Assembly: GCA_030429765.1 (NCBI GenBank)
Contig: JAUIER010000002.1
Span: forward strand, 42,126-106,125
Direction: 5' to 3'
Length of the DNA: 64,000 bases
From: a bacterium
Lineage (GTDB): Bacteria > Omnitrophota > Gorgyraeia > Zapsychrales > Zapsychraceae
Shown here in pieces: positions 45,142 through 61,198 of this stretch. Every line of letters begins with the position of its first letter. The stretch's first letter is position 1. The position numbers and the translations under genes are program-made. The notes beneath the pieces are model-generated. The model did not search any database. It had not been told where the DNA came from and worked only from the letters and a program-made list of their open reading frames with translations.

Positions 45142-46448
45142 ATGGCGTCTCCTGTCAAATCGTATTCATAGGAATCAAGTATTTTTACGTCCACAAAATC
45201 TCCGGGTTGAAGCTTTTGCGCGCTGTGAACATAAACCACTCCATCCACATCCGGCGCGTCGTATTCGCTGCGCCCGATGTACATATCTTCTTCATTTGCC
45301 TGCGGCTCGTCGATCAGCACCTTGAGCGTACGGCCGACATAGCCTTGCTGTATCTCTTCCGAGATCTCCTGCTGCAGATTCATTAATTCATCCCGCCGCT
45401 GTTTTTTAATCTTGTCGGGAACATGATTCGGCATAGAGTAGGCTGGCGTCTGTTCCTCTTTAGAGTAAACAAACGTCCCCATCTTCTCAAAACGGGTATC
45501 ACGGACAAAATCTTTGAGCTCCTGAAAATCCTGATCTGTTTCACCTGGCAACCCAACTATAAATGTGGTTCGCAGACTTCCCGTGGGCATACTGGCTTTA
45601 AACTTGTTCATCAGATCAATCGTTCCCTGACGCGTAATGTTGCGGTTCATCGACTCCAGCAAGTGATCACTGATGTGCTGAAGCGGCACATCAATATATT
45701 TGCAAATTTTAGGTTCCGTGGCCATCACCTCAATCAGCTCATCGGTGACATGCGCCGGAAAGGCATAGAGCAACCGAATCCATTGGATATTCTGCGTCAC
45801 CGCGACGATCTTTTTGAGAAGTTTCGCGAGGCTCAATTCACGGTACAAATCCATCCCGTACGCCGTGATATCCTGTCCGATCAGATTGATCTCGACGACA
45901 CCCTGCGCATCCAGCCGCTGAACTTCTTCCAGAATCGATTCAAACGTGCGCGAGACAAACTTACCCTTGAGCTTCGGGATAATACAAAAGCTGCATTTAT
46001 TGTAGCAGCTCTCGCTGATCTTAACGTACGCAAAATGCTTGGGTGTGAGCGAGACATCCGACGGGATATCATCCCGATTTAGCTTCTGCGCGCCGATAAT
46101 CGCGTCGATATCTTTAAACTCCTCAGCCAATTCCTTGTGATAGCGCTGTGCCAGACATCCGGCGACTATCACTTTTTTAAGTTTCCCCTGTCGCTTGAGT
46201 TCCAACAGATCGATGATCGTATCAATCGACTCCTGTTTGGCTTCGTCTATGAAAGAACACGTGTTTACAATCGCGACCTCAGAATGCTCCAGATCCACTA
46301 TCCGGTGTCCATTACGCTTGAGATTGCTCAACAGCGTCTGGGAATCCACCAGATTTCGGGCGCAGCCCAAGTTGACGAGTCCCACCTTCTGCCCCTGTTT
46401 CAGCCGTTCGCTATGAAAATCATCCGTTGTCTTTGCTGGGTGAATCAT
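45129..46448 (-). CDS. rimO: Ribosomal protein S12 methylthiotransferase RimO (MiaB-like radical SAM)
   Basis: MTTase N-terminal domain (VGLVNLGCARN), radical-SAM CxxxCxxC (CYNKCSFC) and a TRAM C-terminus. Confidence 0.85.
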   Translation of the reverse strand: MIHPAKTTDDFHSERLKQGQKVGLVNLGCARNLVDSQTLLSNLKRNGHRIVDLEHSEVAIVNTCSFIDEAKQESIDTIIDLLELKRQGKLKKVIVAGCLAQRYHKELAEEFKDIDAIIGAQKLNRDDIPSDVSLTPKHFAYVKISESCYNKCSFCIIPKLKGKFVSRTFESILEEVQRLDAQGVVEINLIGQDITAYGMDLYRELSLAKLLKKIVAVTQNIQWIRLLYAFPAHVTDELIEVMATEPKICKYIDVPLQHISDHLLESMNRNITRQGTIDLMNKFKASMPTGSLRTTFIVGLPGETDQDFQELKDFVRDTRFEKMGTFVYSKEEQTPAYSMPNHVPDKIKKQRRDELMNLQQEISEEIQQGYVGRTLKVLIDEPQANEEDMYIGRSEYDAPDVDGVVYVHSAQKLQPGDFVDVKILDSYEYDLTGDAIWPT

Positions 46449-47536
46449 TTTGTTACCGACAATCCATCTTTCGTAATCGTCACACTCTTAGCCTTACGAT
46501 TCTTGCGACCTAATGTTCCAATCAAATTTCCGTTGAGTTCAAATTCCAAATGAATAATGTTCTTGCCTGTTATCTCGATTTGATCATTCGCCCGCCATGT
46601 CTCGACGACCCCCTTATTCAGCGTGGACTGAAAGACGGTTCTGTCATCGGCTTTCACTCTTAACCAGCTCTTTTTGAGCGCCCGGACCGTTAAATTAATT
46701 TCTTTTGAGACCGGTTGTGAAACCACCGGTATTGGTTCAATTGGTTGAGACGGTGTGGGCGCCGGAGCCTGGGCGACCGGTTGGGCCACGGGCGCCGGAT
46801 TGGTGGCCGGGGTTGTCACGGCCGCCACTGGAGCTGCTGCCGGCGGCGTTGGAGCTGGTGCCGGCGTTGGCTTAGGGCGATTGGCTTCAGCCTTTTTTTC
46901 CTTTTTCTTCGCCTCGGCGGCTGCAGCCGCTTTCTTTTTCTGCTCAGCCTTCTTGGCCGCCTCTGCTTTTTTATCGACCTTCTTGACAACCTGCCCCTTG
47001 TCCTTCTTCGGCCGGTTATGAAAATAGTGATTGAGAAATACGATTGTCTTGAAAAGAATAAACAAACCCAAGATCCCGCCGGCAATCGTGATCAGCTGAC
47101 GTTTACGCTGATGCGTAAAATACTTTTTCATGGTCTGCTTAACACGGAATTCAAAATCAGAATCCACATCCGTGGTCTTAACTTCCGCCGCCGGCTTTTC
47201 TTCCTTGAATTCCTGAAGCACATCCGAAATATCAACATTCAGATACGTCGAATAAATCTTCAAAAACCCTTTGATGTAAAAGGGAGACAGCGTGCGGATC
47301 GTATAACCTTCCTCAATTGCTCTGAGCGCGTCCATCGGAATCTTGGTGGATTCATGAACAGCCTCAAGCGATAAGCCTTTCTCCAATCGCGCTTCTTTGA
47401 GGATCTCACCGCTGCGCCGCGGAGGCGTCCGGCTTTCTTCCAGCATCCGCTTGGCATGTTCAACGACGGAATCTTCTTTGTGCGTTTCTTCGACTTGGTC
47501 GAGTGTTTCTTCAGGGCTGTCTGACTTAGGACTCAT
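46445..47536 (-). CDS. rodZ: Cytoskeleton protein RodZ-like (HTH + TM + Pro/Ala-rich linker + C-terminal beta domain)
   Basis: XRE-type HTH (GEILKEARLEKGLSLEAVHESTKIP), a single TM, a PAPAPTPPAAAP-rich linker, and a DUF4115-like C-terminus. The ATG at 47536 is preceded by GGTGA; the track start is a GTG. Confidence 0.75.
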   Translation of the reverse strand: MSPKSDSPEETLDQVEETHKEDSVVEHAKRMLEESRTPPRRSGEILKEARLEKGLSLEAVHESTKIPMDALRAIEEGYTIRTLSPFYIKGFLKIYSTYLNVDISDVLQEFKEEKPAAEVKTTDVDSDFEFRVKQTMKKYFTHQRKRQLITIAGGILGLFILFKTIVFLNHYFHNRPKKDKGQVVKKVDKKAEAAKKAEQKKKAAAAAEAKKKEKKAEANRPKPTPAPAPTPPAAAPVAAVTTPATNPAPVAQPVAQAPAPTPSQPIEPIPVVSQPVSKEINLTVRALKKSWLRVKADDRTVFQSTLNKGVVETWRANDQIEITGKNIIHLEFELNGNLIGTLGRKNRKAKSVTITKDGLSVTK

Positions 47537-49874
47537 TTTCTTCACCTTGCATGTTTTCAAGTAACCATTGTTCACGATCGACTAATATATCTCGGGGCTT
47601 GCTGCCCACGTATGGCCCCACAATTCCCTCGGCCTCCATCATATCGATGAGCCGAGCCGCCCGCGTGTAACCTAATCGCATGCGACGCTGCAAGATTGAT
47701 ACCGAGGCCTGATTGCTCTCGACGACCAACTGGACGGCTTCATCATAGTACTCATCTTTTTCCTTGGCCCCGCCCCGCGCGCCGGCCTTATGACTGTTAA
47801 CAATCGTGTCATCATAGATCGGGGCCTGCTGATCTTTGATGAACTGAATGACCTTAGCAATTTCATCATCCTTAACGAAATTTCCCTGGCCTCGGGTCGG
47901 CTTGGCATCGCCCGGCTTCATAAAGAGCATATCACCCTTTCCAAGGAGCCCTTCCGCTCCATTCGTATCCAGGACGGTCCGTGAATCGACCTTCGATGCG
48001 ACCTTAAATGAAATACGCGCCGGAAAGTTGGCCTTGATCACTCCGGTAATAACATTGACCGACGGACGCTGTGTCGCCAGGATCAAATGAATGCCTACCG
48101 CGCGTGACAGCTGGGCCAATCGGGTAATCGATCCTTCGACGCCTTTGGCCGCGACCTGCATTAAATCCGCCAACTCATCGATAATCACCACGATATAAAA
48201 CATATTATGCCCTTTTTCATTATAGGACTTGATGTTTCTCGCGCCAACTTTGGAAAGTTTTTTGTAACGGGACTCCATCTCGCTGACTACCCAGTTGAGT
48301 ACGGCCGACGCTTTTTTGGGATCGGTCACCGTCGGAGCCAAAAGATGCGGAATATCATTGTATTGCGCCAGCTCGACCATTTTGGGATCGATCATAACAA
48401 ACCGGACCTCATCCGGCGACGCGTTCAACAGGATCGACATGATGATGCCATTCACACACACTGTCTTTCCCGATCCGGTGGTTCCCGCGATTAGCAAATG
48501 CGGCATGTCCGCCAGGTCAGCCACCATCGGTTTACCGGCAATGTCTTTACCCAAGGCGATGGTGAGCTTGGACTTGGAGTTTCTGAATTCACTACTGGCC
48601 AGGACATCCTTGAGAAATACCGAGGCCGATGATCCATTAGGAACCTCAATTCCGACTCGACTCTTTCCCGGGATGGGAGCGACAATTCGAACCGTCGGCG
48701 CCTTCATTGCGAGCGCGATATCATTCGATAAAGTGGTGAACTTTTGAACCTTGACCCCCGGCCCCGGCTCCAATTCATAACGGGTGATCGCCGGTCCGCG
48801 CTCAATATCCACCACGCGCGCGCCCACGCCAAAACTGGCCAGCGTCTCTTCCAAACGCTTGGCGTCGTTCATGAGATGGTTTTGAATCTTGTTGGTCGAT
48901 ACCTTTGGAGGGTCCTGAAGCAGGTCTAGACTGGGGATGGTGAACTCTCCCACGATCTGAGGCTCACTCTCATATTCCTCTGCCGGAGATTTTCCCTGAG
49001 CGATGCGAATCTGCGGCTTCTTGGGCTTGATCTCTTCTTCCTCCTCTTCGTCCTCGTATTCCTCATCCTCTTCGTCTTCCTCGTACTCCTCATCCTCTTC
49101 GTCTTCGTATTCTTCGTCGTCCTCTTCCTCGTCCTCGTCGTATTCCTCTTCGTCCTCGTACTCTTCGTCGTCTTCTTCCTCTTCGTCGTACTCTTCCTCG
49201 TCTTCCTCTTCCTCCTCAATTACGGCCTTGGGCTTCCGTTTCACCCCAGCCGCCTTCGTGGCCACAGATTTGACAGCTGATGACGGCTTAAAGGCCGCGA
49301 TGCTCAGATCACCATTCTTGAAACTCGCGATAAAGGATTCAACGATGCCGTTAATTTTGTTGAAAATACTGAGGAAAAACGGTGTGACGAGGATTTCGCC
49401 GGTAAGAATGAGTGCAAGCGCTCCCAAGGCTGACAGCACGATGTAGGATCCGACTGTACCCAGATAGTGATTGAGAAAGTCCGAGATCAGAATCCCCACC
49501 AGTCCCGCGCGCTGAAAACGTTCGGTCGACTCCTGCGGACCGGACATGCTGATCAGGGCACTGATAACGGCGAATAGGACTACGAAACTGAAAAGTTTAG
49601 TGAAGGTGAATTCGATCTCACGGGCGGTAAACTTATTCCAGCTCCAGAACAACAGAAAAACAACCAACGCGTACGCGGAATATCCGCAGATAAAAAAAAT
49701 GGATCCCGCCAGATAGGCCCCGCTGATCCGTATTAAATTCTCGGCCGGTTGATTGGGAGTGGATGTGTACCAGGATAGATCTTGAGGTGTGAATGAAATG
49801 AGACTGGCGAAGAGAATCATCCCCAGAGCCAGGACAACTATAGCCTTGATTTCATTGATGTGCTCTTCATTCAT
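47526..49874 (-). CDS. ftsK: DNA translocase FtsK
   Basis: 4 N-terminal TM helices, a linker, a motor with Walker A GTTGSGKT, and a gamma domain (winged helix) at the C-terminus. Confidence 0.92.
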   Translation of the reverse strand: MNEEHINEIKAIVVLALGMILFASLISFTPQDLSWYTSTPNQPAENLIRISGAYLAGSIFFICGYSAYALVVFLLFWSWNKFTAREIEFTFTKLFSFVVLFAVISALISMSGPQESTERFQRAGLVGILISDFLNHYLGTVGSYIVLSALGALALILTGEILVTPFFLSIFNKINGIVESFIASFKNGDLSIAAFKPSSAVKSVATKAAGVKRKPKAVIEEEEEDEEEYDEEEEDDEEYEDEEEYDEDEEEDDEEYEDEEDEEYEEDEEDEEYEDEEEEEEIKPKKPQIRIAQGKSPAEEYESEPQIVGEFTIPSLDLLQDPPKVSTNKIQNHLMNDAKRLEETLASFGVGARVVDIERGPAITRYELEPGPGVKVQKFTTLSNDIALAMKAPTVRIVAPIPGKSRVGIEVPNGSSASVFLKDVLASSEFRNSKSKLTIALGKDIAGKPMVADLADMPHLLIAGTTGSGKTVCVNGIIMSILLNASPDEVRFVMIDPKMVELAQYNDIPHLLAPTVTDPKKASAVLNWVVSEMESRYKKLSKVGARNIKSYNEKGHNMFYIVVIIDELADLMQVAAKGVEGSITRLAQLSRAVGIHLILATQRPSVNVITGVIKANFPARISFKVASKVDSRTVLDTNGAEGLLGKGDMLFMKPGDAKPTRGQGNFVKDDEIAKVIQFIKDQQAPIYDDTIVNSHKAGARGGAKEKDEYYDEAVQLVVESNQASVSILQRRMRLGYTRAARLIDMMEAEGIVGPYVGSKPRDILVDREQWLLENMQGEENES
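49016..49232 (-). repeat. Low-complexity coding repeat: about 70-aa Asp/Glu/Tyr-only tract in the FtsK linker
   Basis: EEEEDEEEYDEEEEDDEEYEDEEEYDEDEEEDDEEYEDEEDEEYEEDEEDEEYEDEEEEEE. The DNA is a GAA/GAG/GAC/TAC microsatellite-like repeat. Confidence 0.8.
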
Positions 49875-49980
49875 ACGTATATAGTACTAATATTATTATG
49901 TTAAAGCAAATAAGCGGGTAGGCTTTTACACCTACCCGCTTATTGTATCACATATGCATATTTCGACGCTGAAAATCTGA

Positions 49981-52101
49981 CTATTTTGATTCCGCTTGCT
50001 TCTTACTTAGATTCATCCGCTTCATCTTGTCGATTTCCAACAATTTGACCTTGAATTCATCTCCGACATTGACCACGGAACTGACGTCTTTGACGTATTC
50101 ATCGGAAAGCTCGGACACGTGGACCAAACCTTGCCGACCCGGCAAAAACTCGCAGAACACACCGAAATTAGTGACTTTAGCCACTTTGGCATCATAAATC
50201 TTGCCGACTTCCGGGGGCTGAACCAGACCATCGATAAATTTCTTGGCCTTGTCCGCGGATTCCACGTTTGAACCGGCGATCACAACCTTACCGTCATCAT
50301 CGATATCGATCGATGTGGCCTCGGTCTCTTCCATGATGCGCTTGATCATCTTACCTCCCGGTCCGATCACCTCACCGATCTTATCTTGTGGCACGGACGT
50401 GATCACGATCTTCGGCGCGTATTGATTGACATCATCCGCCGGCTTGGCGATCGTAGCGGTCATGTTTTCCAATATCTTCAATCTGGCTTCACGTGCCTGC
50501 TCAATTCCCTTGGCCAGGACTTCCATGGAAACCCCCTGGACCTTGAGATCTAGCTGAATAGCGGTGATACCCTTGGTTGATCCGGCAATCTTGTAGTCCA
50601 TATCGCCGTGGTGATCTTCAAGCCCCATGATATCCGACAGCAGTCGAAAATCACTTGGATCCTCGTTCAACAGCAGCCCGACAGAGATGCCGGCCACCGG
50701 ATTTTTGATCGGCACACCGGCTGCCATCAAGGCCAGCGTTCCGGCACATACCGATGCCATACTGGATGATCCGTTGGATTCCAAAATTTCGGAAACCACT
50801 CGAACTGTATAGGGAAAATCTTCCTTGGTTGGCATAACACCGCGGATAGCTTTGGCCGCCAACGCCCCATGACCGATTTCTCGTCGACCAGGACCACGGC
50901 TACCGCGTGCCTCTCCGACACTAAAAGCCGGAAAATTATAGTGCAGCATAAAGTTGTTGTAGGCTAATTCTTGAAGGCCTTCCACCATTTGCTCGTCACG
51001 TTTGTTTCCAAGCGTGACAACCGCCAAACTTTGCGTCTGGCCGCGTGTAAACAATGATGACCCGTGCGTGCGCGGAAGAACATTTACTTCGCTGCTCAAG
51101 GCGCGGATTTCGTCGGTCTTTCGCCCGTCCGCCCGTTTGTTATCATTGAAGATCGACGTTCGAACCACATCGTATTCGACCTTGTCGAACATCTCTCTGA
51201 TATCACCGGCCGGAACTTCTTCTTCACCTTCTTTTCGGCAGCCGTCAAATTTGGACATGTCGCTGAGAAGTTCATCCAGTAACGCTGTCGCAGCATTTTC
51301 ACGCTCTTTCTTGTCGGCAATCTTGTAAACCTCGACGAGACGATCTTTGATCAGCGAGGCAACCGTGTTTTTTAAGTCCGGATGCGGGCTGAAAACCTGT
51401 ATCTCCTCTTTTTTGGGTTTGCCAACTCGATCCCGGAACTGGTTTTGGGCGTCGATCATCGCGGCCATTTGCTGTTGAGCAAACTCAAGCCCCTCAATGA
51501 CTTTCTGATCATCGACTTCATAACCCTCACCCTCGATCATAACGATCCCGTTCTTCACCCCGACGACAAACAGCTCAAGTTCGCTCTCCGCACGCTGCGC
51601 GTACGTTGGGTTAATCACAAACTGTCCATCGGCCATACCGACGCGAACAGCACCGATAGGACCGTCAAACGGAATATCTGACACGTGCAGTGCCGCTGAG
51701 GCACCAATCGTGGCCAGAATATCCGGATCGTTTTCACCGTCGGAACTGATAACGTTACATGTGACAACGACATCGTTCCGGAAACCTTCCGGGAACAGCG
51801 GACGGATCGGTCGGTCTATAATCCGTGCCGTCAGTGTTTCCTTCTCTGTCGGACGACCTTCCCGTTTGAAAAATCCTCCGGGGATTTTTCCAGCCGCATA
51901 GGCTTTTTCCTGATACTCAACCATTAATGGAAAAAAATCTATTCCATCCTTAGGCTTGTTGGACATACAAACAGCAACTAGAACCGTTGTTCCTCCGACG
52001 GTAACGGTAACTGAACCGTGCGCCTGTTTGGCTAATTTCCCCGTTTCTAGTACGAGTGTCTGATTGCCAAACGGCATTTCAATACTTTCATTTTGAATCA
52101 T
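49981..52101 (-). CDS. pnp: Polyribonucleotide nucleotidyltransferase (PNPase)
   Basis: Two RNase PH domains plus KH and S1. 706 aa. Confidence 0.95.
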   Translation of the reverse strand: MIQNESIEMPFGNQTLVLETGKLAKQAHGSVTVTVGGTTVLVAVCMSNKPKDGIDFFPLMVEYQEKAYAAGKIPGGFFKREGRPTEKETLTARIIDRPIRPLFPEGFRNDVVVTCNVISSDGENDPDILATIGASAALHVSDIPFDGPIGAVRVGMADGQFVINPTYAQRAESELELFVVGVKNGIVMIEGEGYEVDDQKVIEGLEFAQQQMAAMIDAQNQFRDRVGKPKKEEIQVFSPHPDLKNTVASLIKDRLVEVYKIADKKERENAATALLDELLSDMSKFDGCRKEGEEEVPAGDIREMFDKVEYDVVRTSIFNDNKRADGRKTDEIRALSSEVNVLPRTHGSSLFTRGQTQSLAVVTLGNKRDEQMVEGLQELAYNNFMLHYNFPAFSVGEARGSRGPGRREIGHGALAAKAIRGVMPTKEDFPYTVRVVSEILESNGSSSMASVCAGTLALMAAGVPIKNPVAGISVGLLLNEDPSDFRLLSDIMGLEDHHGDMDYKIAGSTKGITAIQLDLKVQGVSMEVLAKGIEQAREARLKILENMTATIAKPADDVNQYAPKIVITSVPQDKIGEVIGPGGKMIKRIMEETEATSIDIDDDGKVVIAGSNVESADKAKKFIDGLVQPPEVGKIYDAKVAKVTNFGVFCEFLPGRQGLVHVSELSDEYVKDVSSVVNVGDEFKVKLLEIDKMKRMNLSKKQAESK

Positions 52102-52183
52102 TCTTTTCTCCCTTACTACGGCACATCAACGCTGTCATATGGAACATTTTGTATCCGATGAATTCGCCTTATGCATTAATTCT

Positions 52184-52453
52184 TTACTTGCGTAGATTAA
52201 GTTTCGCAATTGTTTCCTGATATTTTTGAGGGTCTTTCTTCTTGAGGTAGGCTAGAAGACGTCGTCGTTTACCGATCATCGTTAATAGTCCACGACGCGA
52301 GTGAAAATCTTTCTTATGACGCTTAAAATGATCTGTGAGGTAGTTGATCCGCTCACTTAAAATGGCGATTTGAACCGCCGGCGACCCTGTGTCTTTGGCA
52401 TGTGATTTGAAGTCACCGATGACTTCTGTCTTTCTGTCTTTAAGTAATACCAC
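52184..52453 (-). CDS. rpsO: 30S ribosomal protein S15
   Basis: ...[37 protein letters not shown].... GTG start. Confidence 0.95.
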
Positions 52454-52676: not shown

Positions 52677-53096
52677 TTATGATTTTTTCGCCCCTGTAGA
52701 CTTTTTTGCGGTTTTTTTGCGTGTTTTGGTCGTCTTTTTAGCGGGCGACTTGCGCTTAGCTGTTTTCTTAGCGGTCTTTTTGGCCGACTTCTTCAGCTGG
52801 CTCTTGATTGATTTCTGCTCGGCATCAATCTTGTGATAATCCTCAATCAGGCCTTTAAGGGCCGCGGTAGGCTTAGTCAAGTCCTTGAGCTTAACAACTT
52901 CCTTACCGATTTGATAGTACAGCTTCTCCTTCTTGAGCCCCACGGCTGTCGAGTCGAGATGAATCTTGCTCTGGTGTGTGAACTTAAGGAGCTCCTCCTC
53001 ACCCTTCTTGGCCAATTTGGAGGCTTCCTTGCCGAACTTGGCGAGCTGCTTTTTGGTCTTTTCCCATTCTGATTTTACATCATAATGTTTTGACAT
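52677..53096 (-). CDS. Lysine-rich protein with histone H1/Hc1-like C-terminal tail (KKTAKK repeats)
   Basis: Helical N-terminal 90 aa, then SAKKTAKKTAKRKSPAKKTTKTRKKTAKKSTGAKKS. Confidence 0.5.
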   Translation of the reverse strand: MSKHYDVKSEWEKTKKQLAKFGKEASKLAKKGEEELLKFTHQSKIHLDSTAVGLKKEKLYYQIGKEVVKLKDLTKPTAALKGLIEDYHKIDAEQKSIKSQLKKSAKKTAKKTAKRKSPAKKTTKTRKKTAKKSTGAKKS

Positions 53097-53246: not shown

Positions 53247-53483
53247 ATGAAAGACGGATTGATGCTATTTACGGGAATCGCCCTGGTGTTTGGTTTGATG
53301 ATCTTCGGTATGTACAAGTTCACTCGAGCGAATTATGACGCGCCCGAACGTACCCAGGAAGAAATCGAGGCAGCCTATCAGGAACGCGCCGACCGCCGAC
53401 AGCAAATCAAGGACGTTCAACGACGTCAAAGAGATTTGATGCGCCAGCAGAAACAACGTATCCGGGACATGCAGCGTCGTTAA
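53247..53483 (+). CDS. Small membrane protein with Arg/Gln-rich charged C-terminal tail
   Basis: The ATG at 53247 is preceded by GGAAG; the track start is a TTG. One TM, then a QRRQRDLMRQQKQRIRDMQRR tail. Confidence 0.4.
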   Translation: MKDGLMLFTGIALVFGLMIFGMYKFTRANYDAPERTQEEIEAAYQERADRRQQIKDVQRRQRDLMRQQKQRIRDMQRR

Positions 53484-53502: not shown

Positions 53503-53910
53503 CTATGTATGGTCTCGGGCCGATAAGATTCGTTGAGTCATTTCGGATTCATAAAGATCCGCTATCTCCACCAACCCTTCATCTCCCAGGAAATTCTTAA
53601 TTGCTGCCTCAATGGCCTCCAGTCTGGCCAACAGATATCGGTAGTCAGGATTTAAAACCTTCCTGGCCATATCATCAAATTTTTTGGATTCAGCTTTGGC
53701 GAGCTTGTTGTTTTTGTAGTCTTCAAACTCTAATATTCGTTTGGACAATTGATCATCTTTATCGATCCTTTTGTTGAGTTCTTCCAGCAGAAAATCATCA
53801 ACAATAGCCTGCGTAAAGTATCGATCAATACGATCGAGATCTTCCTTGGTGGTTTTGTAACACCAGATCAGATACCGTCTGACTAGATTTAGTTGATTGG
53901 GTTCCAACAT
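53503..53910 (-). CDS. Hypothetical helical protein downstream of the Cys-rich TadE-like gene
   Basis: 135 aa, no recognisable motif. 48-nt gap after the upstream gene. Confidence 0.4.
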   Translation of the reverse strand: MLEPNQLNLVRRYLIWCYKTTKEDLDRIDRYFTQAIVDDFLLEELNKRIDKDDQLSKRILEFEDYKNNKLAKAESKKFDDMARKVLNPDYRYLLARLEAIEAAIKNFLGDEGLVEIADLYESEMTQRILSARDHT

Positions 53911-53958
53911 TTATTATGAGGTATTTTTCGGAAGAGAATTAGATTTGCCTAGACTCGA

Positions 53959-56157
53959 CTAGATACAGTTGTTGGTTCCGCCTGTGTCACAATTTCCACT
54001 ACAACACTCACCATTACTTGCACAAGCATTGCCATTATCTGTACAACACACATTGGAGACACAACTTTCTGTTCCAGCACATCCACCGCAAGTTGCCGTC
54101 CCACCGCATCCATCTGGGAAGCTACCACAATTGCCTGGTCCGCAGGTCAGAGGTGTACAGCATGAGTTGGAGACACATACATCACCCGGCGTCGGACATG
54201 CCCCGCAATTCAATGTGCCCCCGCAACCATCCGGAATACCTGAACCACAGTCTCCCGCGTTACAGGTGGCAGGAGTACAACAAGTGCTCGCATTACACAC
54301 GTCGCCAGGCGTTGGACATGCTCCGCAGTTTATGGTAGATCCGCAACCGTCCGGAATACCGGGCCCACATTGCCCCGGCCCGCAAGTTGACGGCGTACAA
54401 CACGTATTTGAAACACATACATCACTTGGCCCCGGGCAAACACCACAATCTGTATCGGGAATCCCCGGACAACCGGAATTAATCGACCCACAATCGCCGG
54501 CAACACACGCGTAAGGTGCGCAGCATGTTTGCGTCGCGTCACAGACGTCCGGCAATGTACATGAACCACAGTCTACGTCTGGAATTCCCGGACATCCGGA
54601 TGGGAAAATTCCACAATCCGTTGGCGCACATTGATGCGGAGTACAACAATTCTGCGATGTATCACAAACCTCCGGCAAACTACATCCGCCACAGTCAACA
54701 TCAGGGATTGTCGGACAACCTGAAGGGAATGTCCCACAATTAGTCGCTGTACATTGGTATGGAAGACAACAATTACTTGGTGTGATAAACTGCTCTGGCG
54801 TCTCACCATTCCCGACTGGACCACCAACCACTACACATACTTCAGCCCCGGGACATGAAGTGCCGCAATCATGAATATCGTCGCAATTGTCAAACGTCTC
54901 GCCACATGTTGGATGACTACAGGTTATGGATGGATTCTGAGGCGTACATACACATTGGTTACCACTCGGATTTTGAAAACAACTTTCGTTCGCATTGCAC
55001 AAGTCAGGACAAATGATCGTCTGACCACAATTGTTGACAGCTGGGCCGCACTGATGGATTTCGGTCGGAGGGACTCCGCATGTGGTTTGCCATGGATCAG
55101 GCGAACACCCGGAACATGTCGTTCCCACACACACATTGGCTCCTGTACAAGTGTCTGGACATGTTACATTGTTTCCACAGTTGTCCACGGCCGGACCACA
55201 TTCCTGACCTAGGCACGTTATTCCAAGGGGCTCGGGGATACATACGCAGGAATTACCCGAGCATCCCTGGGGTGGACTCATGAGAGCGCATGTATCAGGG
55301 CAGGTAACTGTTTGACCACAATTATTAACCGCCGTACCGCATGACACTCCCGAACATGTCGTTGACAACGGCTCAGGCGCACAATTACATAGGTTACCGA
55401 CACATACATCTGGAGGTGTACACGTATCCGGACAGCTGACAATTTGCCCACAATTATTCGTGGCATTTCCACACTCCAATCCCGAACACGTCGTTCCAAT
55501 GGCATCAGGCGTACAACAGCTATTTCCCTGACAGACATCACCAGGCCCACATGTGTTTGGACAAGTAACATTTTGGAAGCAGTTATTGACAGCCGGACCA
55601 CACGCTATACCAGTACAAGTTGTTCCCAACGCCTCGGCCGTACAGGAGCATACATTTCCTGAACAGGTGTCCGGAGGAGCACATCCCCCGCAATTGACAA
55701 GCGTACCACATCCATCATCGATGGATCCACAAGCCAATCCACCACAAGGATTGGTTGGAATACACACACACGTGTTGCCCACACACCCCAAAGGTGACAC
55801 ACAACTACCGCAATTCAGCAAGACGCCACAACCATCATTTATGGTACCACATTCGATAGGACCACCGCAGCTATTGGAAGGAACACAACCCGTGGAGCAA
55901 TCGGCCGCACAAGTTGCATTTTCACCGGGTTCACAACACCCGTTACCACATGTAGGAGTACACCCCGAAGTAAGATCAAAACAAACACCATCGGCCATAC
56001 ACTCAATCCCGCGGACGGCATTCTCAAGTGAATCATCCATGGATCGCTCAAGCAATCCGCCTGGCGACATCGCCCAGACGATCAGCCCGACGATGACGGA
56101 AAAAAGCAGCAAGTACTCGACAAGCTGCTGGCCAATTTTGTTTGTTTTAAGGAGCAT
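53959..56157 (-). CDS. TadE/Flp-pseudopilin-like N-terminus fused to about 680 aa of cysteine-rich tandem repeats (secreted or surface protein)
   Basis: The N-terminus MLLKTNKIG/QQLVEYLLLFSVIVGLIV matches the TadE-like class III signal G-xxxxEY plus a hydrophobic helix. It is followed by about 6 repeats of the type TTCSGxxCGxAVNNCGQxVxCPDTC...VCxGNxC. About 7 further repeats are of the type CCTPxxCxxGxCGSxxxGCPGIPDxDCGxCxxPxDVC. Cys is roughly 20% of residues. ATG at 56157; the track TTG is at 56163. Confidence 0.7.
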   Translation of the reverse strand: MLLKTNKIGQQLVEYLLLFSVIVGLIVWAMSPGGLLERSMDDSLENAVRGIECMADGVCFDLTSGCTPTCGNGCCEPGENATCAADCSTGCVPSNSCGGPIECGTINDGCGVLLNCGSCVSPLGCVGNTCVCIPTNPCGGLACGSIDDGCGTLVNCGGCAPPDTCSGNVCSCTAEALGTTCTGIACGPAVNNCFQNVTCPNTCGPGDVCQGNSCCTPDAIGTTCSGLECGNATNNCGQIVSCPDTCTPPDVCVGNLCNCAPEPLSTTCSGVSCGTAVNNCGQTVTCPDTCALMSPPQGCSGNSCVCIPEPLGITCLGQECGPAVDNCGNNVTCPDTCTGANVCVGTTCSGCSPDPWQTTCGVPPTEIHQCGPAVNNCGQTIICPDLCNANESCFQNPSGNQCVCTPQNPSITCSHPTCGETFDNCDDIHDCGTSCPGAEVCVVVGGPVGNGETPEQFITPSNCCLPYQCTATNCGTFPSGCPTIPDVDCGGCSLPEVCDTSQNCCTPHQCAPTDCGIFPSGCPGIPDVDCGSCTLPDVCDATQTCCAPYACVAGDCGSINSGCPGIPDTDCGVCPGPSDVCVSNTCCTPSTCGPGQCGPGIPDGCGSTINCGACPTPGDVCNASTCCTPATCNAGDCGSGIPDGCGGTLNCGACPTPGDVCVSNSCCTPLTCGPGNCGSFPDGCGGTATCGGCAGTESCVSNVCCTDNGNACASNGECCSGNCDTGGTNNCI
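53975..55880 (-). repeat. Intragenic tandem coding repeats (about 105-120 bp units, two families) in the Cys-rich gene
   Basis: Direct reading of the translated repeats. Many spurious ORFs in other frames on both strands (e.g. 53969..54514 +, 55553..56188 +) reflect repetitive, stop-poor DNA. Confidence 0.75.
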
Positions 56158-56330
56158 ACGCAATCTCTGGCAAAACCAGTTAGGTTAAACACCCTATAAT
56201 TATACCCAAAAAGTTCGGTACACACTAGAATTATTTTGGAATCCCTGAGGTTGAGATTTTCACATATTTCCGGTCAATATCTAAGTATAACACAAGTAGG
56301 GAAGAAATCCGAACCCTGAGGGCCCAAGGA

Positions 56331-56975
56331 TCAGTTCACCCGAAATACCTTATCCCCTACTCTGACAGGCTTTTTAAGCTTAACTCCCACCAGCTGGCCA
56401 CGTTTGGCCGACTTGACCTCCACGCTTTCGATCTGCAACGATTCAATGGTCTCAAGATTATCCGTCTGTTTACCCTTTATATTGATCTGGTCCCCCAACT
56501 TTATTGACGTCTTATTGACCTTGATCACACACACTTTGATCTTGGAGAAATAGTGGGTCACTTCTCCAACGAGCGACGAGGCCGCCGATTTTGCACGAGC
56601 CCCCTTGGAGGCTGACTTCTTTTTGGTGGCAGCGACCTTCTTTTTAGCCGGAGCTTTCTTCGGCGCCGACTTTCGTTTGGCTGCGGGGCTGGACTTGGCT
56701 GGTGACTTTTTGGCCTTCGCCGGTGTATTCTTTCGACGATCACTCGAACTCGTCGAGCTTCGTCGAGCGCCTGAACTCTTTCGGGGAGTGGCTTTGGACT
56801 TAGTGGTCGTCGATCTTGAGCGAGATGATGATGAACGCGAAGGTTTGGCTCGGGCGGCTTTGGTTTTGGTGGATTGAACTCTGGACTTGTTGTAACGCGT
56901 TGGTCGAACGACCGTGTCTGATGAACCGGCAAACCAACTCTTGACTGTATCGATGATTTGGTTGAGGAAATCCAT
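56331..56975 (-). CDS. Basic, Ser/Lys/Ala/Arg-rich intrinsically disordered protein with C-terminal small beta-barrel domain
   Basis: Residues 25-140 are low-complexity basic (SRSSSSRSRSTTTKSKATPRKSS...AKKSPAKSSPAAKRKSAPKKAPAKKK). The C-terminal 75 aa is a GD-containing beta-hairpin domain (KLGDQINIKG...VRVGDKVFRV). Confidence 0.5.
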   Translation of the reverse strand: MDFLNQIIDTVKSWFAGSSDTVVRPTRYNKSRVQSTKTKAARAKPSRSSSSRSRSTTTKSKATPRKSSGARRSSTSSSDRRKNTPAKAKKSPAKSSPAAKRKSAPKKAPAKKKVAATKKKSASKGARAKSAASSLVGEVTHYFSKIKVCVIKVNKTSIKLGDQINIKGKQTDNLETIESLQIESVEVKSAKRGQLVGVKLKKPVRVGDKVFRVN

Positions 56976-57056
56976 TTTACCTAACTAGTGGTGTGGAATC
57001 TGCTCCTGGGGGAATCCATTCGATATGCGCTGAATCATTAGTTTCCAATCGTCCCA

Positions 57057-58298
57057 TTATCCAGCGGCCTGCTGATCTCCCGCCGACACTTCGATCAAAG
57101 AATTGATATCCCCGAAAGAATTCCGTTCTTTGCGGGCATTCTTTGGATCTTCCTTCCACACACCGTCAACAATGAACTGATATTTGTAGAGACCCGGCTT
57201 AAGTGGAATCTCCGCCTCCCAGGTGCCGTCCTTTTCATGCATGCGACAGGTGTCATCCAGCGACCAGTCATTAAAACTTCCGGTAACGTAGACTGATTTG
57301 GCTTCCGGAGCATTAATCGAAAATCGGATCTTGCTCAATCCAACCATTTCCTTACGTACAATATCCTGCATTTGCTCGGACATTGGCGCCAAGGCATCCT
57401 CAGAGATCAGCTCTTCCGATTTTGTAGTTTCCGTACGTTCAATGCGATTTTCCCGTCGAACCTCATCTCGAACCACTTCACGGGGCGCTTCGGCAATCTC
57501 TTCCCTAGCTTGATCCTTTTCTTCAGACTTTTCACGATCCAGCCGGTCAAGCAATATAAGCTCTTTGGCCAGACTGAAATAGTCTTTCGATCCGCGGCAG
57601 TATTTGTCATAAGCTGAAACCGTCTTGCCCATAACAGCCGATTCCTTCAATTTGACATTGATGTGGATAATTGTATCGAACATAATCTTTTCAAATCGCT
57701 CTTTAAACGTCGACAGCATCGCAAAAGAGTGGCGAAGGCGTGAATCAAACATCGTCACCAAAATACGGCACTTTACTTCATGATTCAGCCGATCCTTTAC
57801 AAGATTGACGATGTCCGTCAGGTGATCAACACCCTGCATGGAAAAACGGCTGGTTTCCACCGGAATGATCAGCTCATCGCTGACGCGGATGGCGTTGACT
57901 GTCAAAATCCCCAGACTCGGCGGGCAGTCAATAATCACGTAGTCATACCTGTCGTTGAGCGGTTCAATCGCCTCGCGAAGTTTGAGCTCACGGCCAATTT
58001 CATCCGACAACTCCTGCTCCAGGGTTCCAACCAGAACATTTGAGGGAACCAGATCAAAACTATTTTCGACACGTCGGATAATATTTTCGATTTTGAGTTT
58101 GCGAGGGGTCAGCTTAGAAATAACGTTATAGATACTGTCCTGGCTTTCAATATCAAGACCAAGCGACGCGTGAGCTTGTGGGTCCAGATCGAACAATAAA
58201 ACCTTTTGCCCGTTCTGGCTCAGAGCCGACGCCAAATTAATTGCTGTAGTGGTCTTCCCGCATCCACCTTTTTGGTTAGCGACTGAAATTATTTTCAT
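57057..58298 (-). CDS. ParA/MinD-family ATPase fused to a C-terminal CBM48 / AMPK-beta glycogen-binding domain
   Basis: Deviant Walker A KGGCGKTT at residues 10-17. A charged coiled linker follows. The C-terminus VYVTGSFNDWS...PGLYKYQFIVDGVWKEDP aligns to the AMPK beta GBD/CBM48 consensus (VYLSGSFNNW...YKFFVDGQW.HDP). RBS AGGGGG. Confidence 0.85.
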   Translation of the reverse strand: MKIISVANQKGGCGKTTTAINLASALSQNGQKVLLFDLDPQAHASLGLDIESQDSIYNVISKLTPRKLKIENIIRRVENSFDLVPSNVLVGTLEQELSDEIGRELKLREAIEPLNDRYDYVIIDCPPSLGILTVNAIRVSDELIIPVETSRFSMQGVDHLTDIVNLVKDRLNHEVKCRILVTMFDSRLRHSFAMLSTFKERFEKIMFDTIIHINVKLKESAVMGKTVSAYDKYCRGSKDYFSLAKELILLDRLDREKSEEKDQAREEIAEAPREVVRDEVRRENRIERTETTKSEELISEDALAPMSEQMQDIVRKEMVGLSKIRFSINAPEAKSVYVTGSFNDWSLDDTCRMHEKDGTWEAEIPLKPGLYKYQFIVDGVWKEDPKNARKERNSFGDINSLIEVSAGDQQAAG

Positions 58299-58328
58299 AT
58301 TGAAATGCCCCCTAATATTCGTAATGGA

Positions 58329-58910
58329 TTAGTTGGTTGTTGCAAAATTTATATTGTCGATCAAGACAATCCCGCGCTTGTCTTCAACGTTCCAGGACTC
58401 TAAGACAAATGCGACATCTTGAACGCTGGACCAATCAGATATTTCCTTGAATTCCGAAAGCGGAATATGATAGTCCTGCCAGGCCAGATTGACCCCTTCG
58501 ATATAGTGGTAAGCCTCTTCATTGTAACGACTTGTGACAACGACCTTGACTATACCCGGCACGCCTTCCTCCTTGCCCCGCATGGAAAATTCCAGACTTC
58601 CATACTTGCCGACGTCCATATCCGGTATCGACAAGGCAAATCGTTCAACAGGATTGCTCGATCCCTTAAAATCATAGTCAAACCGAACAGCTCCCTGATG
58701 AAGCGAGTAGATGACGTTCTGCTTGAGTTCATCCTTGTTGTGTGTAAGAAAAGCTGTCAGACCATAAAAAGCGCTGGCAAAAATGATCGCCGTGATCAAC
58801 CCGTTGATCAGCAGCCAAGCATTGAATTGCTTTTTGGTTTTGGCATCATCTTTTTTACGCTTGCCCAAGTAAACTTGCGCAAGATGGTCGTAGATATCGT
58901 CTTTGGTCAT
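58329..58910 (-). CDS. Membrane-anchored protein with extracytoplasmic beta-sandwich (CBM-like?) domain, hypothetical
   Basis: Lys-rich N-terminus, one TM (WLLINGLITAIIFASAFYGLTAF), then a 130-aa domain rich in beta-strand patterning. First gene of the cluster, preceded by an about 200-bp AT-rich region. Confidence 0.45.
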   Translation of the reverse strand: MTKDDIYDHLAQVYLGKRKKDDAKTKKQFNAWLLINGLITAIIFASAFYGLTAFLTHNKDELKQNVIYSLHQGAVRFDYDFKGSSNPVERFALSIPDMDVGKYGSLEFSMRGKEEGVPGIVKVVVTSRYNEEAYHYIEGVNLAWQDYHIPLSEFKEISDWSSVQDVAFVLESWNVEDKRGIVLIDNINFATTN

Positions 58911-59145
58911 TGGTCCGTCTTAAAGATTTATTAGATAATCGGAATGGAAGAACTGCTTTTTTTATCTAATTATTTTTATCATAACAAATTAAAAACAAAT
59001 TAAAACTATAATTTCACTTTTTTTTACAATAAAAAATATTTTTTCTCGTCGAGAAAATGGAATACTTAAAAATCATTTGGAAAATATTTTACAATTAGCT
59101 CGTCGGAACGCTACGAGCGTGAACTCAAGTGCACAATCAAACCAT

Positions 59146-59178
59146 AAAAAAAGCCCCTGCCGATTTCTCGACAGGGGC
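59146..59178 (-). terminator. Rho-independent terminator after the OMP gene
   Basis: On the minus strand: GCCCCTG-tcgagaaatcgg-CAGGGGC followed by TTTTTTT, 27 nt after the stop codon. Confidence 0.8.
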
Positions 59179-59204
59179 TTGATCTATAATCGATCAACTA
59201 ACGA

Positions 59205-60575
59205 TTAGAATGCAACGTTCATGTTAACCAATACTTGTTTGGCTGATGAATCGTTTTCGCTTTCCCAGATACTTCCTGGTAAAAACCATCCAACGCTAGC
59301 ACCGATTTGTACATCTTCAGTGTAGTCATAAGACAGGTCAAAGTTAAACTCTTTCCCGATGTGTCCACTGTTGTTGTTTGTTGCCAATGACAGTGTTGTT
59401 CCATCTGGCTGTCGGATTGACTTTGATCCGAATTTTGTGTTTCTTTCATTCCACAGGCTAGTGATTCCAAGACGTGCAGTTACGTCTTCCATCGGCTCAG
59501 CCATTAGGTAAAGCGAGTGGATTTCCATGTTTGTTAGATCAAACAATGAATTGTAGATATGTCCACCACCTTGTGCTTCGAAGAATGGATCCCATCCAGT
59601 CCAGTCAGTTTGAGATGTAGAGTTATCCTCTTCACCTGTAACCTTGGTGAAGATGTACTGAGCCACTGGCTTGTACTCTTCTAGAGCTGGGATTTGGTAG
59701 TTTACGATACCCTGGAAGGCCCAAGCGCTTCTTTTTCGATTGGCGTTCGTTGTAGACGAAAGTCTCTTACGTCCACCTTGGTGAGCCATTTCGAACTGAA
59801 TGTTCAGGTTTTCCAATGGGTTAGTGCTGGCGCGAACCCCTGTTACCTTGATGTAGTCAGTTTGCGCTCCAGTTACGTTATCGTTGTCTTCTTTGTTGCG
59901 TGATTTATAGAAGTACGCTTCCACAACTGAGTCCATATCGTCACCCAATTGGTAGTTGGCGTTAACCCCCCATAGATCGATGTCATCATCTAGGTCAGAC
60001 AATGAAACCGTGTTTTGGTCGATCTTTGAGTAGAATACTTCTACAGTTAGCGGATTGTAATCGAAGATCGCTCGGATCGCATCAATTGCAGTCTGCTTCG
60101 TTAGATCTTGAGCGATTCCATTGATACCTGAGTCACCCGGTGCCAAGTTGTTGGCTCCAGTTGCGTCAAATACCAATCCGTTTCCGTATGAAAACGTCTG
60201 GCGCCCCACAACTAGTGTAAGTGGAGAGTACAGCATTTCCTTTAGTGTTACATAGGCCAAGTGAAGATCAACGTCAGACGATGATGTCGTGTTGTCGGCA
60301 TTCCATCCTCTTTCAGTGATCAGCGCGATCGTTACGAATACTTGGTCTGTAAGGTCAGCATCAACTTGAAGACCTGTCTGGTTGATGAACAGGCTTTGCT
60401 CATCTTGAACGCGGTTAGGCGCGATACCAGCTTTTGAACCCAAGTTGAAATTGTTGCGGTAAATATAAGTGTTGTCAGTCCATCCACTTATCTTTACGTT
60501 TTGAACGCTAGCAAATGCCGGTACCGCTGATAGAGCGACAGCCGCAGCAGCTGCTAATACGAATAATTTTCTCAT
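59205..60575 (-). CDS. Outer-membrane beta-barrel porin (signal peptide, C-terminal aromatic Phe)
   Basis: ATG at 60575 with a GGAGGAG RBS. Signal peptide MRKLFVLAAAAAVALSAVPAFA. Alternating amphipathic beta-strands ending ...VLVNMNVAF. Confidence 0.7.
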   Translation of the reverse strand: MRKLFVLAAAAAVALSAVPAFASVQNVKISGWTDNTYIYRNNFNLGSKAGIAPNRVQDEQSLFINQTGLQVDADLTDQVFVTIALITERGWNADNTTSSSDVDLHLAYVTLKEMLYSPLTLVVGRQTFSYGNGLVFDATGANNLAPGDSGINGIAQDLTKQTAIDAIRAIFDYNPLTVEVFYSKIDQNTVSLSDLDDDIDLWGVNANYQLGDDMDSVVEAYFYKSRNKEDNDNVTGAQTDYIKVTGVRASTNPLENLNIQFEMAHQGGRKRLSSTTNANRKRSAWAFQGIVNYQIPALEEYKPVAQYIFTKVTGEEDNSTSQTDWTGWDPFFEAQGGGHIYNSLFDLTNMEIHSLYLMAEPMEDVTARLGITSLWNERNTKFGSKSIRQPDGTTLSLATNNNSGHIGKEFNFDLSYDYTEDVQIGASVGWFLPGSIWESENDSSAKQVLVNMNVAF

Positions 60576-60927
60576 TATTTCTCCTCCAAAAAGGTAAATA
60601 ACTACTTCAGATTTTGATATATTCAACTAGACGATCTAAGGTTATGTCTAGAGATTTACATATTAGGTTGACCAGTTTACTCGACGATTCGACAATAATG
60701 TTTTTTACCATCCCCCCTTTCTTATTCGTATATTTGAATCATCACTGGTATTGCTCTCACGGGCATATACTCGCCGTAAATACAAATAATTGCAATTCTT
60801 AACGTATAGCGATACGCATAGCTCCGCTGAAAACAAATGGTTATTCGTTGTTTTTATCACACGCTAACGGCAGTGTCAACAAAATTTGATTTTATTTTAA
60901 CTTGCAATTTTTTGCGCTACTCTCCCG

Positions 60928-60950: not shown

Positions 60951-61034
60951 CTAAAATTTTAGTCATATGAACCGAAACTTGGCTTGCATAACTCAATTAG
61001 TTGCACAGTTTTTAAGCTGTACTAAAAATCAAAA

Positions 61035-61107
61035 TGCGCCTAGGTGGACTCGAACCACCCCACCAGCCTTAGGAGGGCCGAGCTCTATCCATCTGAGCTA
61101 TAGGCGC
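61035..61107 (-). tRNA. tRNA-Arg (anticodon CCT)
   Basis: Manually folded: acceptor GCGCCTA/TAGGCGC, D-arm GCTC..GAGC, anticodon stem CGGCC/GGCTG with loop CTCCTAA, T-arm GGTGG-TTCGAGT-CCACC, discriminator A. No encoded CCA. Confidence 0.85.
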
Positions 61108-61198
61108 AAAATTTTTTCGCAATCTAAACCGCCAGCCTATCATACTCAGCCTTGGGATGTGGTCCGTTTAGGTCAACTTCACCACACCAAATATCACC

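Follow-up and report, generated by a model that had tools for sequence, protein, structure and literature searches.

The window analysed here is a stretch of 64,000 nucleotides (nt) on contig JAUIER010000002.1, from a bacterium of the phylum Omnitrophota, and the subject of this work is a cluster of five co-oriented genes within it, designated G1 to G5, which lie on the minus strand from position 58910 down to position 53503 in order of transcription. The second gene, G2, encodes a fusion of a ParA-type ATPase with a carbohydrate-binding module (CBM) of family CBM48. Our reading of the sequence evidence, to which we assign a probability of about 45%, is that the genes constitute a composite operon-like cluster, in which G1, G2 and G3 would form a ParA-type module that tethers or positions glycogen, and G4 and G5 a co-located surface-fibre pair. 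How carboxysomes, magnetosomes, polyhydroxybutyrate (PHB) granules and polyphosphate granules are actively positioned or tethered has been worked out; for glycogen, the carbon store that is most widespread among bacteria, it has not, and glycogen goes unmentioned in a 2025 review on the positioning of organelles in bacteria (PMC13052382). A concrete and testable candidate for this role is a ParA-type ATPase that carries an intact glycogen-binding module and is conserved in several phyla. If the reading is true, its design would be unusual among ParA systems, the cargo adaptor being part of the ATPase protein itself.

The five genes, with lengths in amino acids (aa), are:

58329-58910, minus strand: G1, 193 aa
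57057-58298, minus strand: G2, 413 aa
56331-56975, minus strand: G3, 214 aa
53959-56163, minus strand: G4, 734 aa when read from TTG
53503-53910, minus strand: G5, 135 aa

The list of open reading frames (ORFs) bears out the five minus-strand genes of the original prediction, and its description of each product, i.e., a membrane-anchored beta-sandwich protein (G1), the ParA-CBM48 fusion (G2), a basic disordered protein with a C-terminal beta barrel (G3), a TadE-like Cys-rich giant (G4) and a small helical protein (G5), holds in Pfam, Foldseek, AlphaFold2 (AF2) and composition analyses. The genes are not unique to this genome: G1 has 455 homologues and G5 has 221. The intergenic gaps are 30 nt between G1 and G2, 81 nt between G2 and G3, 167 nt between G3 and G4 and 48 nt between G4 and G5. 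For comparison, 80 genome loci around G2 homologues were used together with 11 more that were reached through G5 and G2; where single loci are named they carry L numbers. The relatives place the window in Candidatus Omnitrophota.

The ParA-CBM48 fusion protein

G2 is composed of three parts, encoded as follows:

57549-58298, minus strand: residues 1-250, Soj/ParA-type ATPase with deviant Walker A motif (AAA_31, E 1.5e-55)
57342-57548, minus strand: residues ~251-319, charged linker rich in Glu, Arg and Lys and of variable length, read from the sequence
57057-57341 including the stop codon, minus strand: residues ~320-413, CBM48/AMPK-beta-type glycogen-binding module (AMPK1_CBM, E 1.1e-15)

The homologues of G2 span 354-434 aa, and residue conservation was counted in 74 full-length homologues from many phyla. 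The N-terminal domain, which also matches the Pfam family CbiA (E 9e-19), contains the Walker A sequence NQKGGCGKTT with the signature lysine of the ParA/MinD proteins (deviant Walker A). Its best sequence matches in the PDB are ParA (8ray_B, 6e-52), then Soj from H. pylori and Soj from T. thermophilus; McdA, MinD, FleN and the bacterial tyrosine kinases (BY-kinases) are much further from it than chromosomal ParA/Soj. The residues K10, K15, D37 and D39 are invariant in all 74 homologues, and K216, which aligns with the Arg of the Soj/ParA NVRLSE motif (Soj R189 position), is K or R in 67 of them. By alignment, G2 is thus shown to keep every residue needed for ATP-dependent sandwich dimerisation. 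At its C-terminus it carries the CBM48, and a MinD-like C-terminal helix is absent.

The CBM48 lies above the curated thresholds of AMPK1_CBM (58.1 bits, cutoff 26.8) and of CBM_48 (33.0 bits, cutoff 22.4, E 7.8e-8), and in the PDB it matches the CBM of AMPK beta1/beta2 at ~1e-8 and the CBM48 of a GH13 pullulanase at 2e-9. When aligned to 2f15 and 1z0n, G2 has W345, W381 and N399 at the positions of W100, W133 and N150 of AMPK beta1, the two stacking tryptophans and the polar Asn of the binding site. Each of the two tryptophans is kept in 73/74 homologues, and position 399 is N or D in 71/74. The module therefore resembles the AMPK beta CBM in its score as well as in the retained Trp and Asn residues; it differs in being mounted on a bacterial ParA ATPase and not on a kinase scaffold, and in the position of AMPK K126, where the window has Gln and 65 of the 74 homologues have Arg or Lys. 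The glycan-binding platform of G2 appears intact, and binding of alpha-glucan itself is predicted. Taken together, the invariant Walker lysines, the tryptophans and the basic residue at position 216 indicate that both halves of G2 are under purifying selection.

In its motifs (the deviant Walker A with signature lysine, Walker A' and Walker B), in its Soj-like sequence and in the basic residue at the DNA-binding position, G2 resembles McdA of the McdA/McdB system, Soj/ParA, PpfA, PomZ and MipZ. It resembles McdA/McdB also in being an orphan without a nearby ParB that is encoded near a small, highly charged and disordered protein, here G3, as McdA is beside McdB. In contrast to McdA and ParA, G2 has a cargo-binding module, the CBM48, fused to the ATPase, its cargo would be a polysaccharide, and its conserved neighbour is the membrane protein G1, whose CBM lies outside; for an ATPase-stimulating partner there are only candidates, namely the N-terminal peptide of G1 and the N-terminus plus basic tail of G3. 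The adjacent parB that marks a chromosomal ParABS locus is missing from the G2 loci: there is no ParBc-domain gene in the Pfam-annotated flanks of L081, L083 and L085-L091, no ParB-like conserved neighbour cluster among the 80 loci around G2 homologues, and no second ParA within the window.

An ATPase closest to chromosomal Soj/ParA combined with a CBM closest to that of AMPK beta, a known glycogen sensor, could also mean that G2 senses glycogen status, as AMPK does, and modulates a Soj/MipZ/PomZ-like activity on chromosome or division-site placement. The cluster indeed lies beside ftsK-rodZ in this clade. However, the ftsK neighbourhood is clade-specific, no ParB or division gene is present in the same operon, and a sensor would leave the deeply conserved partners, the membrane CBM protein and the H1-like protein, unexplained, so that we judge this role distinctly unlikely.

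The full-length ParA-CBM48 fusion is found in ~78 species genomes, which belong to Omnitrophota, Planctomycetota, Desulfobacterota, Myxococcota, Gammaproteobacteria and others. No description of such a fusion or of a glycogen-positioning ATPase was found in the full-text literature, in which subscription journals are incompletely covered, and two papers on Omnitrophota that treat Tad pili and giant proteins do not discuss this cluster. Outside the Omnitrophota, the gene after the fusion usually encodes a degenerate MinD-like protein with the N-terminal peptide RGLxxISHLFLS (14 loci, in Planctomycetota, Desulfobacterota and others), and often a NucS/PD-(D/E)xK-like protein comes next. Loci of the fusion with the MinD-like gene include L027 (10001-12748), L030 (3375-6219), L055, L058, L062, L072 and L075. 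The combination of fusion, MinD-like and NucS-like proteins looks like a separate conserved operon type, which could be matched to no described one. An equivalence between the LAQVYLG N-terminus of G1 and the RGLxxISHLFLS motif was considered and rejected: a position-specific scoring matrix built from 14 instances of the motif ranked G1 first in only 2/28 Omnitrophota loci, and both of these top windows lay inside G1 but off its N-terminal peptide. As the matrix does not recognise G1, the partners of the fusion differ between phyla.

Conserved gene order and the two layers of the cluster

A lack of synteny elsewhere had been named as refuting the proposal that the five genes could represent one system. 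This does not apply, as the same order recurs in many Omnitrophota contigs. G1 is located directly upstream of G2 in 25/25 close Omnitrophota loci, over which the identity of G2 falls from 67% to 43%, and G3 is found downstream of G2 in 19 of these 25; in four of the other six the contig ends at most ~600 nt from G2. Five more distant loci have proteins with a transmembrane (TM) helix and a beta domain, i.e., of G1-like architecture, upstream of G2. These proteins (c12) were rejected as homologues of G1, since only one of the five reaches E 0.002 with the G1 profile, and are treated as analogous in architecture only.

The genes G4, which encodes a Flp-type pilin-like protein, and G5 show another distribution. 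Fifteen more distant Omnitrophota loci contain G1 and G2, 14 of them also G3, and all 15 are without the Flp-type gene and G5. Both genes are confined to the clade of the window and are also absent from the other phyla that carry the fusion. Within the clade, L083 has the Flp-type gene and G5 without G3, and L005 and L007 have the Flp-type gene without G5. The cluster thus looks layered, with G1-G2-G3 as a putative old core and G4-G5 as a younger add-on. The largest gap, a hairpin and a TATAAT sequence all precede G4, which fits this layering. The idea of one system for all five genes is therefore upheld in part only: the order is syntenic, but the genes have different histories, with G4-G5 missing from the distant loci and G3 or G5 absent from some loci of the clade.

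In the close clade the conserved order extends over more than 15 kb and continues through a plus-strand membrane gene, a Lys-rich gene, rpsO, pnp, ftsK, rodZ and miaB. The order rpsO-pnp-ftsK-rodZ-miaB (45129-52453 in the window) is kept in relatives with only ~58% PNPase identity. Since the order extends into these genes, synteny in the close clade is not by itself an argument for one system, and it may even be asked if the five genes share any function or are unrelated genes kept together by slow genome rearrangement in this lineage. We consider the latter quite improbable, because the adjacency of G1 and G2 survives down to 43% identity of G2 and through changes in every other neighbour, and because the gaps and overlaps between the genes are operon-like.

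Link to alpha-glucan genes

Of the themes named in the original prediction, a cell-envelope or a granule organisation module, granule organisation is the most defensible one for the core G1-G2-G3, given the ParA-type ATPase, the intact CBM48, the H1-like protein and a GH57 neighbour in a sister clade. In this sister clade, 13 Omnitrophota loci have directly upstream of G1 a gene for a cytoplasmic alpha-glucan enzyme of family GH57, which lacks a signal peptide (Pfam E 3e-67). Furthermore, in three unrelated lineages a GH57 gene is located at most 10 kb from the ParA-CBM48 gene; two of these also have DUF4912, and one of the two a GT4/GT5 starch-synthase-like gene.

Pairs of a GH57 branching-enzyme-like gene and DUF4912 lie a few genes from the fusion operon in two unrelated lineages, in L030 (6676-10649, minus strand) and L027 (13725-17386), and one DUF4912 protein near a fusion carries a Glucodextran_B domain. 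Downstream of G3, the Omnitrophota subclade with GH57 has, in place of the Flp-type gene and G5, genes for two conserved Cys-containing proteins of 61 aa, one with a CxxC...CxxC pattern, and for a DUF134-like protein of 111-117 aa (L009 5337-6228; equivalent positions in L010-L016).

The membrane protein G1

The most conserved part of G1 is an invariant N-terminal peptide, I6-Y-D-x-L-A-Q-V-Y-x-G-K17, as seen in the G1 alignment (A1). It is followed by a TM helix at about residues 31-56 and by a jelly roll at about residues 65-192. Seven K/R residues, as read from the sequence, precede the TM helix and two come after it, so that G1 is predicted to be a single-pass type-II protein with its N-terminus inside; the N-terminal peptide is predicted to be cytoplasmic and the jelly roll extracytoplasmic. 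The AF2 model of G1 has a predicted local distance difference test score (pLDDT) of 83.7 overall and of more than 90 in the jelly-roll domain. In Foldseek this model matches the CBM11 structures 1v0a, the top match, and 6r3m at E 2e-8 to 7e-8, then the CBM30 structure 2c24 at 5e-5, and further CBM28, CBM4 and CBM16; the modelled domain accordingly has the CBM11/CBM30 jelly-roll fold.

G1 itself has no Pfam match at E <= 0.1, and its link to Pfam is transitive: the profile of A1 matches the proteins P0298 and P0313 at ~1e-28, whose domains are called CBM30 (5.5e-37) and CBM_11 (1e-23) by Pfam. The 455 homologues of G1 are all unnamed Omnitrophota proteins without a Pfam domain. A profile search of 1.84 billion representative proteins gave 760 relatives, some of which are large and have tandem copies of the domain. 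The G1-type jelly roll is present in 2-6 tandem copies in proteins of ~900-2950 aa that have beta-helix, PKD or glucoamylase domains (P0298, P0313, P0336, P0369), and it is also found at the C-terminus of HD/HD_5-domain proteins (P0364, P0365).

In its layout, in which a membrane protein that combines an external domain with a short, conserved peptide on the cytoplasmic side is encoded beside a cytoplasmic MinD/ParA-like P-loop protein, the pair G1-G2 resembles the split BY-kinases (CapA/CapB) and BcsQ with its membrane partners. It differs from CapB/Etk in that G2 matches these only weakly (E ~1e-5) and lacks the C-terminal tyrosine cluster, and in that polysaccharide synthesis genes are missing.

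The basic protein G3 and the MamF/MmsF-like gene

G3 consists of an N-terminal amphipathic helix, a basic disordered region of 116 aa that is histone-H1-like (38 K+R against 1 D+E) and a C-terminal beta barrel of 78 aa (56334-56567). The barrel is similar to domain 2 of EF-Tu: GTP_EFTU_D2 matches 12/13 members of the family, with a best E of 6e-7, and the family profile matches the barrels of eIF5B and SelB in the PDB at E 1e-4. Where organelles or granules are tethered to DNA, this is usually through histone-H1-like tails, which tie PHB and polyphosphate granules to the nucleoid (PMC13052382). With their H1-like tails rich in K, A, P and S, G3 and the nearby Lys-rich protein resemble PhaF, PhaM and PhaH of PHB granules and AlgP of polyphosphate granules (PMC13052382). 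However, those systems have no ATPase and serve another type of granule, and in G3 the folded part is a barrel similar to domain 2 of EF-Tu and not a phasin.

In most relatives a gene for a small membrane protein of the MamF/MmsF (DUF4870) type is inserted between G2 and G3, often overlapping the stop codon of the ParA gene. It is missing from the window, which has lost it; only an 81-nt gap remains at 56976-57056.

The Flp-type gene G4 and the helical protein G5

The start codon of G4 is more likely the ATG at 56157, which gives 732 aa and is the one called on an identical public contig, than the TTG. In its 734-aa form the protein contains 126 Cys, arranged in ~15 Cys-rich repeats of two types (~45 and ~40 aa) with 8 Cys each. 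On the DNA level a dedicated repeat search found repeats with periods of 120 and 130-150 nt that have diverged to 60-84% identity; Tandem Repeats Finder returned nothing, as they are too diverged. The N-terminus, KIG/QQLVEYLLLFSVIVGLIV, contains the Flp prepilin motif G/xxxxEY (KIG/QQLVEY) followed by a hydrophobic helix. This motif, G-xxxx-EY, is present in every positional orthologue of G4 whose N-terminus was read; the 1199-aa gene of L086 did not match the pattern used. The lengths at the position of G4 are 61, 63, 74, ~84, 129, 143, ~154, 734, 1199 and 1298 aa. Six of seven short orthologues match Flp_Fap, Flp1_like or Class_IIIsignal with E values from 8e-4 to 3e-2 and with scores that stay under the gathering cutoffs, and the whole G4 protein has no match in Pfam or NCBIfam. 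From the short orthologues, which combine the same position, the motif and the sub-threshold Flp matches, the predicted ancestral form of G4 is a small Flp pilin and its Cys-rich tail a variable extension.

G4 is thus a putative, unusually extended member of the Flp-type pilin-like proteins. It shares the motif and the hydrophobic helix with Flp pilins and with TadE/TadF pseudopilins, and its orthologues of 61-74 aa have Flp size and layout. It differs from the Tad (type IVc) systems in that no Tad machinery is encoded nearby and the Pfam matches remain below threshold, and from the described Flp/TadE proteins in its Cys-rich repeat extension of ~670 aa, which reaches up to ~1240 aa in L081. 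In a phylum thought to live attached to other cells or to prey on them, G4 is a candidate variable surface fibre.

An initial tblastn search gave no G4 match in the 80 loci, due to repeat divergence and length variation, and suggested that G4 was not syntenic; this was rejected after ORF inspection, in which a short or long Flp-type gene was seen at the same position. In the databases G4 has only 37 weak relatives, which share the repeat and carry ordinary signal peptides. Public gene calls miss the giant Flp-type gene, as JGI and NCBI annotate only short antisense ORFs there, so that the family is under-represented in protein databases; missed continuous frames are those of L081 (4077-7973, 1298 aa) and L087 (~2266-5865, ~1199 aa).

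G5 is a three-helix bundle (pLDDT 94.3) that is predicted to be cytoplasmic and gave no informative structural match. It belongs to an orphan family, whose 221 homologues are all from Omnitrophota. G5 is found only directly after the Flp-type gene, which it overlaps by 4 nt in L083, and every relative with G5 has a Flp-type gene at the G4 position.

The positioning of pili or polysaccharide machines is an established task of ParA/MinD relatives, with TadZ/CpaE for Tad pili and BcsQ for cellulose synthase. In analogy, all five genes might form one integrated system, in which G2 places an envelope structure whose exported part is the Flp-like Cys-rich fibre, with G1, G3 and G5 as accessory proteins. 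The genes are all co-oriented; in L083 those for ParA, the MamF-like protein, Flp and G5 are separated by 9-19 nt or have 4 nt in common, the gaps in L090 are at most 67 nt, and G5 together with the Flp-type gene is found only inside the cluster, in at least 12 contigs. We nevertheless rate an integrated system as rather unlikely. Neither the Flp-type gene nor G5 is present in the 15 more distant Omnitrophota clusters or in any other phylum bearing the fusion, the CBM48 would be without an obvious role, and the synteny of the clade takes in housekeeping genes as well. Furthermore, neither tadV, cpaF/tadA, tadB/C, rcpA, secretin and prepilin peptidase genes nor a type II secretion system (T2SS) were found in the annotated flanks of eight related contigs, a search that did not extend to the rest of the genome, and no T2SSE-type Walker A motif is present anywhere in the window. 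The reading of the cluster as a Tad locus with a TadZ-like ATPase was rejected on the same ground, the lack of Tad genes nearby.

Proposed model of a glycogen-positioning core with a surface-fibre pair

In the preferred reading, glycogen positioning by the core plus a separate fibre pair, the first layer (G1-G2-G3 and, in most relatives, the MamF/MmsF-like protein) would be a module of long standing in Omnitrophota, with an orphan ATPase of the Soj/ParA type at its centre. ATP-bound dimers of G2 would assemble on a surface, either the nucleoid, as Soj and McdA do, or the membrane via G1, and the CBM48 would hold alpha-glucan (glycogen) particles directly. Thereby glycogen would be tethered, spaced and shared between daughter cells, with the cargo adaptor built into the ATPase in place of a separate partner of the ParB or McdB type. 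The cytoplasmic N-terminal peptide of G1 may act as membrane-side partner or regulator of G2, and its external CBM11/30-like domain may report on, or anchor to, an envelope glycan. G3, with its H1-like polycationic tail, would be a further partner, with DNA or some other polyanion as its ligand, like PhaF, PhaM and AlgP for PHB and polyphosphate granules. Such a scheme for holding glycogen matches the plan of scaffold binder, organelle binder and spacer of carboxysomes, PHB and polyphosphate granules.

The second layer, G4-G5, would be a clade-specific pair inserted downstream. G4 would be a Flp-type prepilin, whose exported part has grown by Cys-rich repeats of disulfide type into a variable fibre or adhesin and which Tad or type-IV machinery from another locus may process, and G5 may be a cytoplasmic helper. 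The pair is probably co-transcribed with the first layer, at least in part, and need not share its function.

Several points weigh against this reading. There are no glycogen genes within the window, and the adjacency of GH57 in Omnitrophota is confined to one subclade, so that the GH57 link may go back to one ancestral event. In L083 and L090 all genes, including the Flp-type gene and G5, are at most 67 nt apart or overlap, which fits a single operon and weakens a functional split between the two layers. For the CBM of G1 a periplasmic location is predicted, beyond the reach of cytoplasmic glycogen, which makes its role in the model ad hoc. Direct cargo binding by a ParA protein departs from the usual ratchet logic; in G2 it may result in no more than static tethering, or the CBM48 may serve for sensing and not as a cargo hook. 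Outside the Omnitrophota the partner of the fusion is the MinD-like protein with the RGLxxISHLFLS peptide, so the partner logic is not conserved. Finally, the host organisms are uncultured.

A further-reaching form of the model would see in the ParA-CBM48 fusions a widespread and undescribed class of ParA/MinD positioning ATPases with a built-in hook that tethers and partitions glycogen, the first dedicated bacterial system for this, which in Omnitrophota would be wired across the inner membrane to G1 and also to G3 and would thereby couple granule placement to the envelope. We regard this form as rather unlikely.

Flanking genes, transcription signals and neighbouring genes

The cluster is flanked by rpsO/pnp on one side and by an outer-membrane protein (OMP) gene and a tRNA gene on the other, as the original prediction had it. 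The flanking and intergenic features are:

49981-52101: pnp, on the G5 side
52184-52453: rpsO, on the G5 side
56164-56330, minus strand: spacer between G3 and G4, 39.5% GC
58911-59150, minus strand: AT-rich leader of G1, 24.9% GC over 58920-59140
59151-59180, minus strand: predicted intrinsic terminator of the upstream OMP gene, a 13-bp stem with 8 GC pairs, then TTTTTTTAT
59205-60626: OMP gene of the Alginate_exp family, upstream of G1 (Pfam E 1e-15)
61034-61108: tRNA-Arg gene, beyond the OMP gene

The terminator at 59151-59180, as predicted from its stem, marks the 5' boundary of the transcription unit of the cluster. It also bears on the possibility that the OMP, as an AlgE-family porin, together with G1 (compare BcsB) and G2 (compare BcsQ) forms a module for export or uptake of an envelope glycan like the Bcs or Alg systems. 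The Alginate_exp OMP gene is located upstream in the window and in 17/25 close loci, the fold of G1 matches carbohydrate-binding domains of BcsB (5ej1_B, E 2.8e-4), and G2 matches CBP_BcsQ at E 3.5e-12. However, a strong terminator separates the OMP gene from G1, no glycosyltransferase or synthase is encoded in the cluster, Soj is a much closer match to G2 than BcsQ is, and the CBM48 and GH57 point to a cytoplasmic alpha-glucan, which makes such a module very improbable. A defence system or prophage was rejected as well, as in PADLOC and PHROGs G2 is matched only locally, at its P-loop, and the other proteins are not matched at all.

The cluster was originally described as bounded by two AT-rich promoter-like regions. 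This applies to 58920-59140, which is strongly AT-rich compared to the mean GC content of the window of 48.5%, and the leader of G1 is the probable site of its promoter; the second region, 56164-56330, is internal, between G3 and G4, and only mildly AT-rich. The G3-G4 spacer contains a hairpin at 56309-56327, directly after the stop codon of G3, and, by eye, a perfect TATAAT on the minus strand at 56204-56199, a possible internal promoter before G4. In relatives with a short Flp-type gene the spacer measures only 19-74 nt. A scan for the sigma-70 consensus found no minus-strand site in 58920-59140 or 56164-56330, and its total of 9 matches, against 9.8 expected from shuffles, is not above chance. 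A regulatory RNA in the AT-rich leaders was rejected, as the Rfam search gave the tRNA as its only match and none in these leaders.

The Lys-rich H1-like protein encoded at 52677-53096 on the minus strand, which the original prediction had added to the cluster, lies beyond an opposite-strand gene at 53259-53483, so that its gene is a separate transcription unit. The protein combines a KKxAKK tail with a conserved N-terminal domain of helical structure, an architecture that resembles nucleoid tethers of the PhaF/AlgP type, and it recurs just upstream of rpsO in L081, L082, L086, L088 and L089. Its assignment as phasin-like is unsupported, with no match in Pfam, NCBIfam or the PDB. The plus-strand gene at 53259-53483, between G5 and the Lys-rich gene, encodes a small membrane protein with a Q/R-rich tail (...RRQQIKDVQRRQRDLMRQQKQRIRDMQRR), for which Pfam gives no more than a weak ZapG-like match (E 0.005), and is kept at the same position in L005, L007, L008, L081 and L086.

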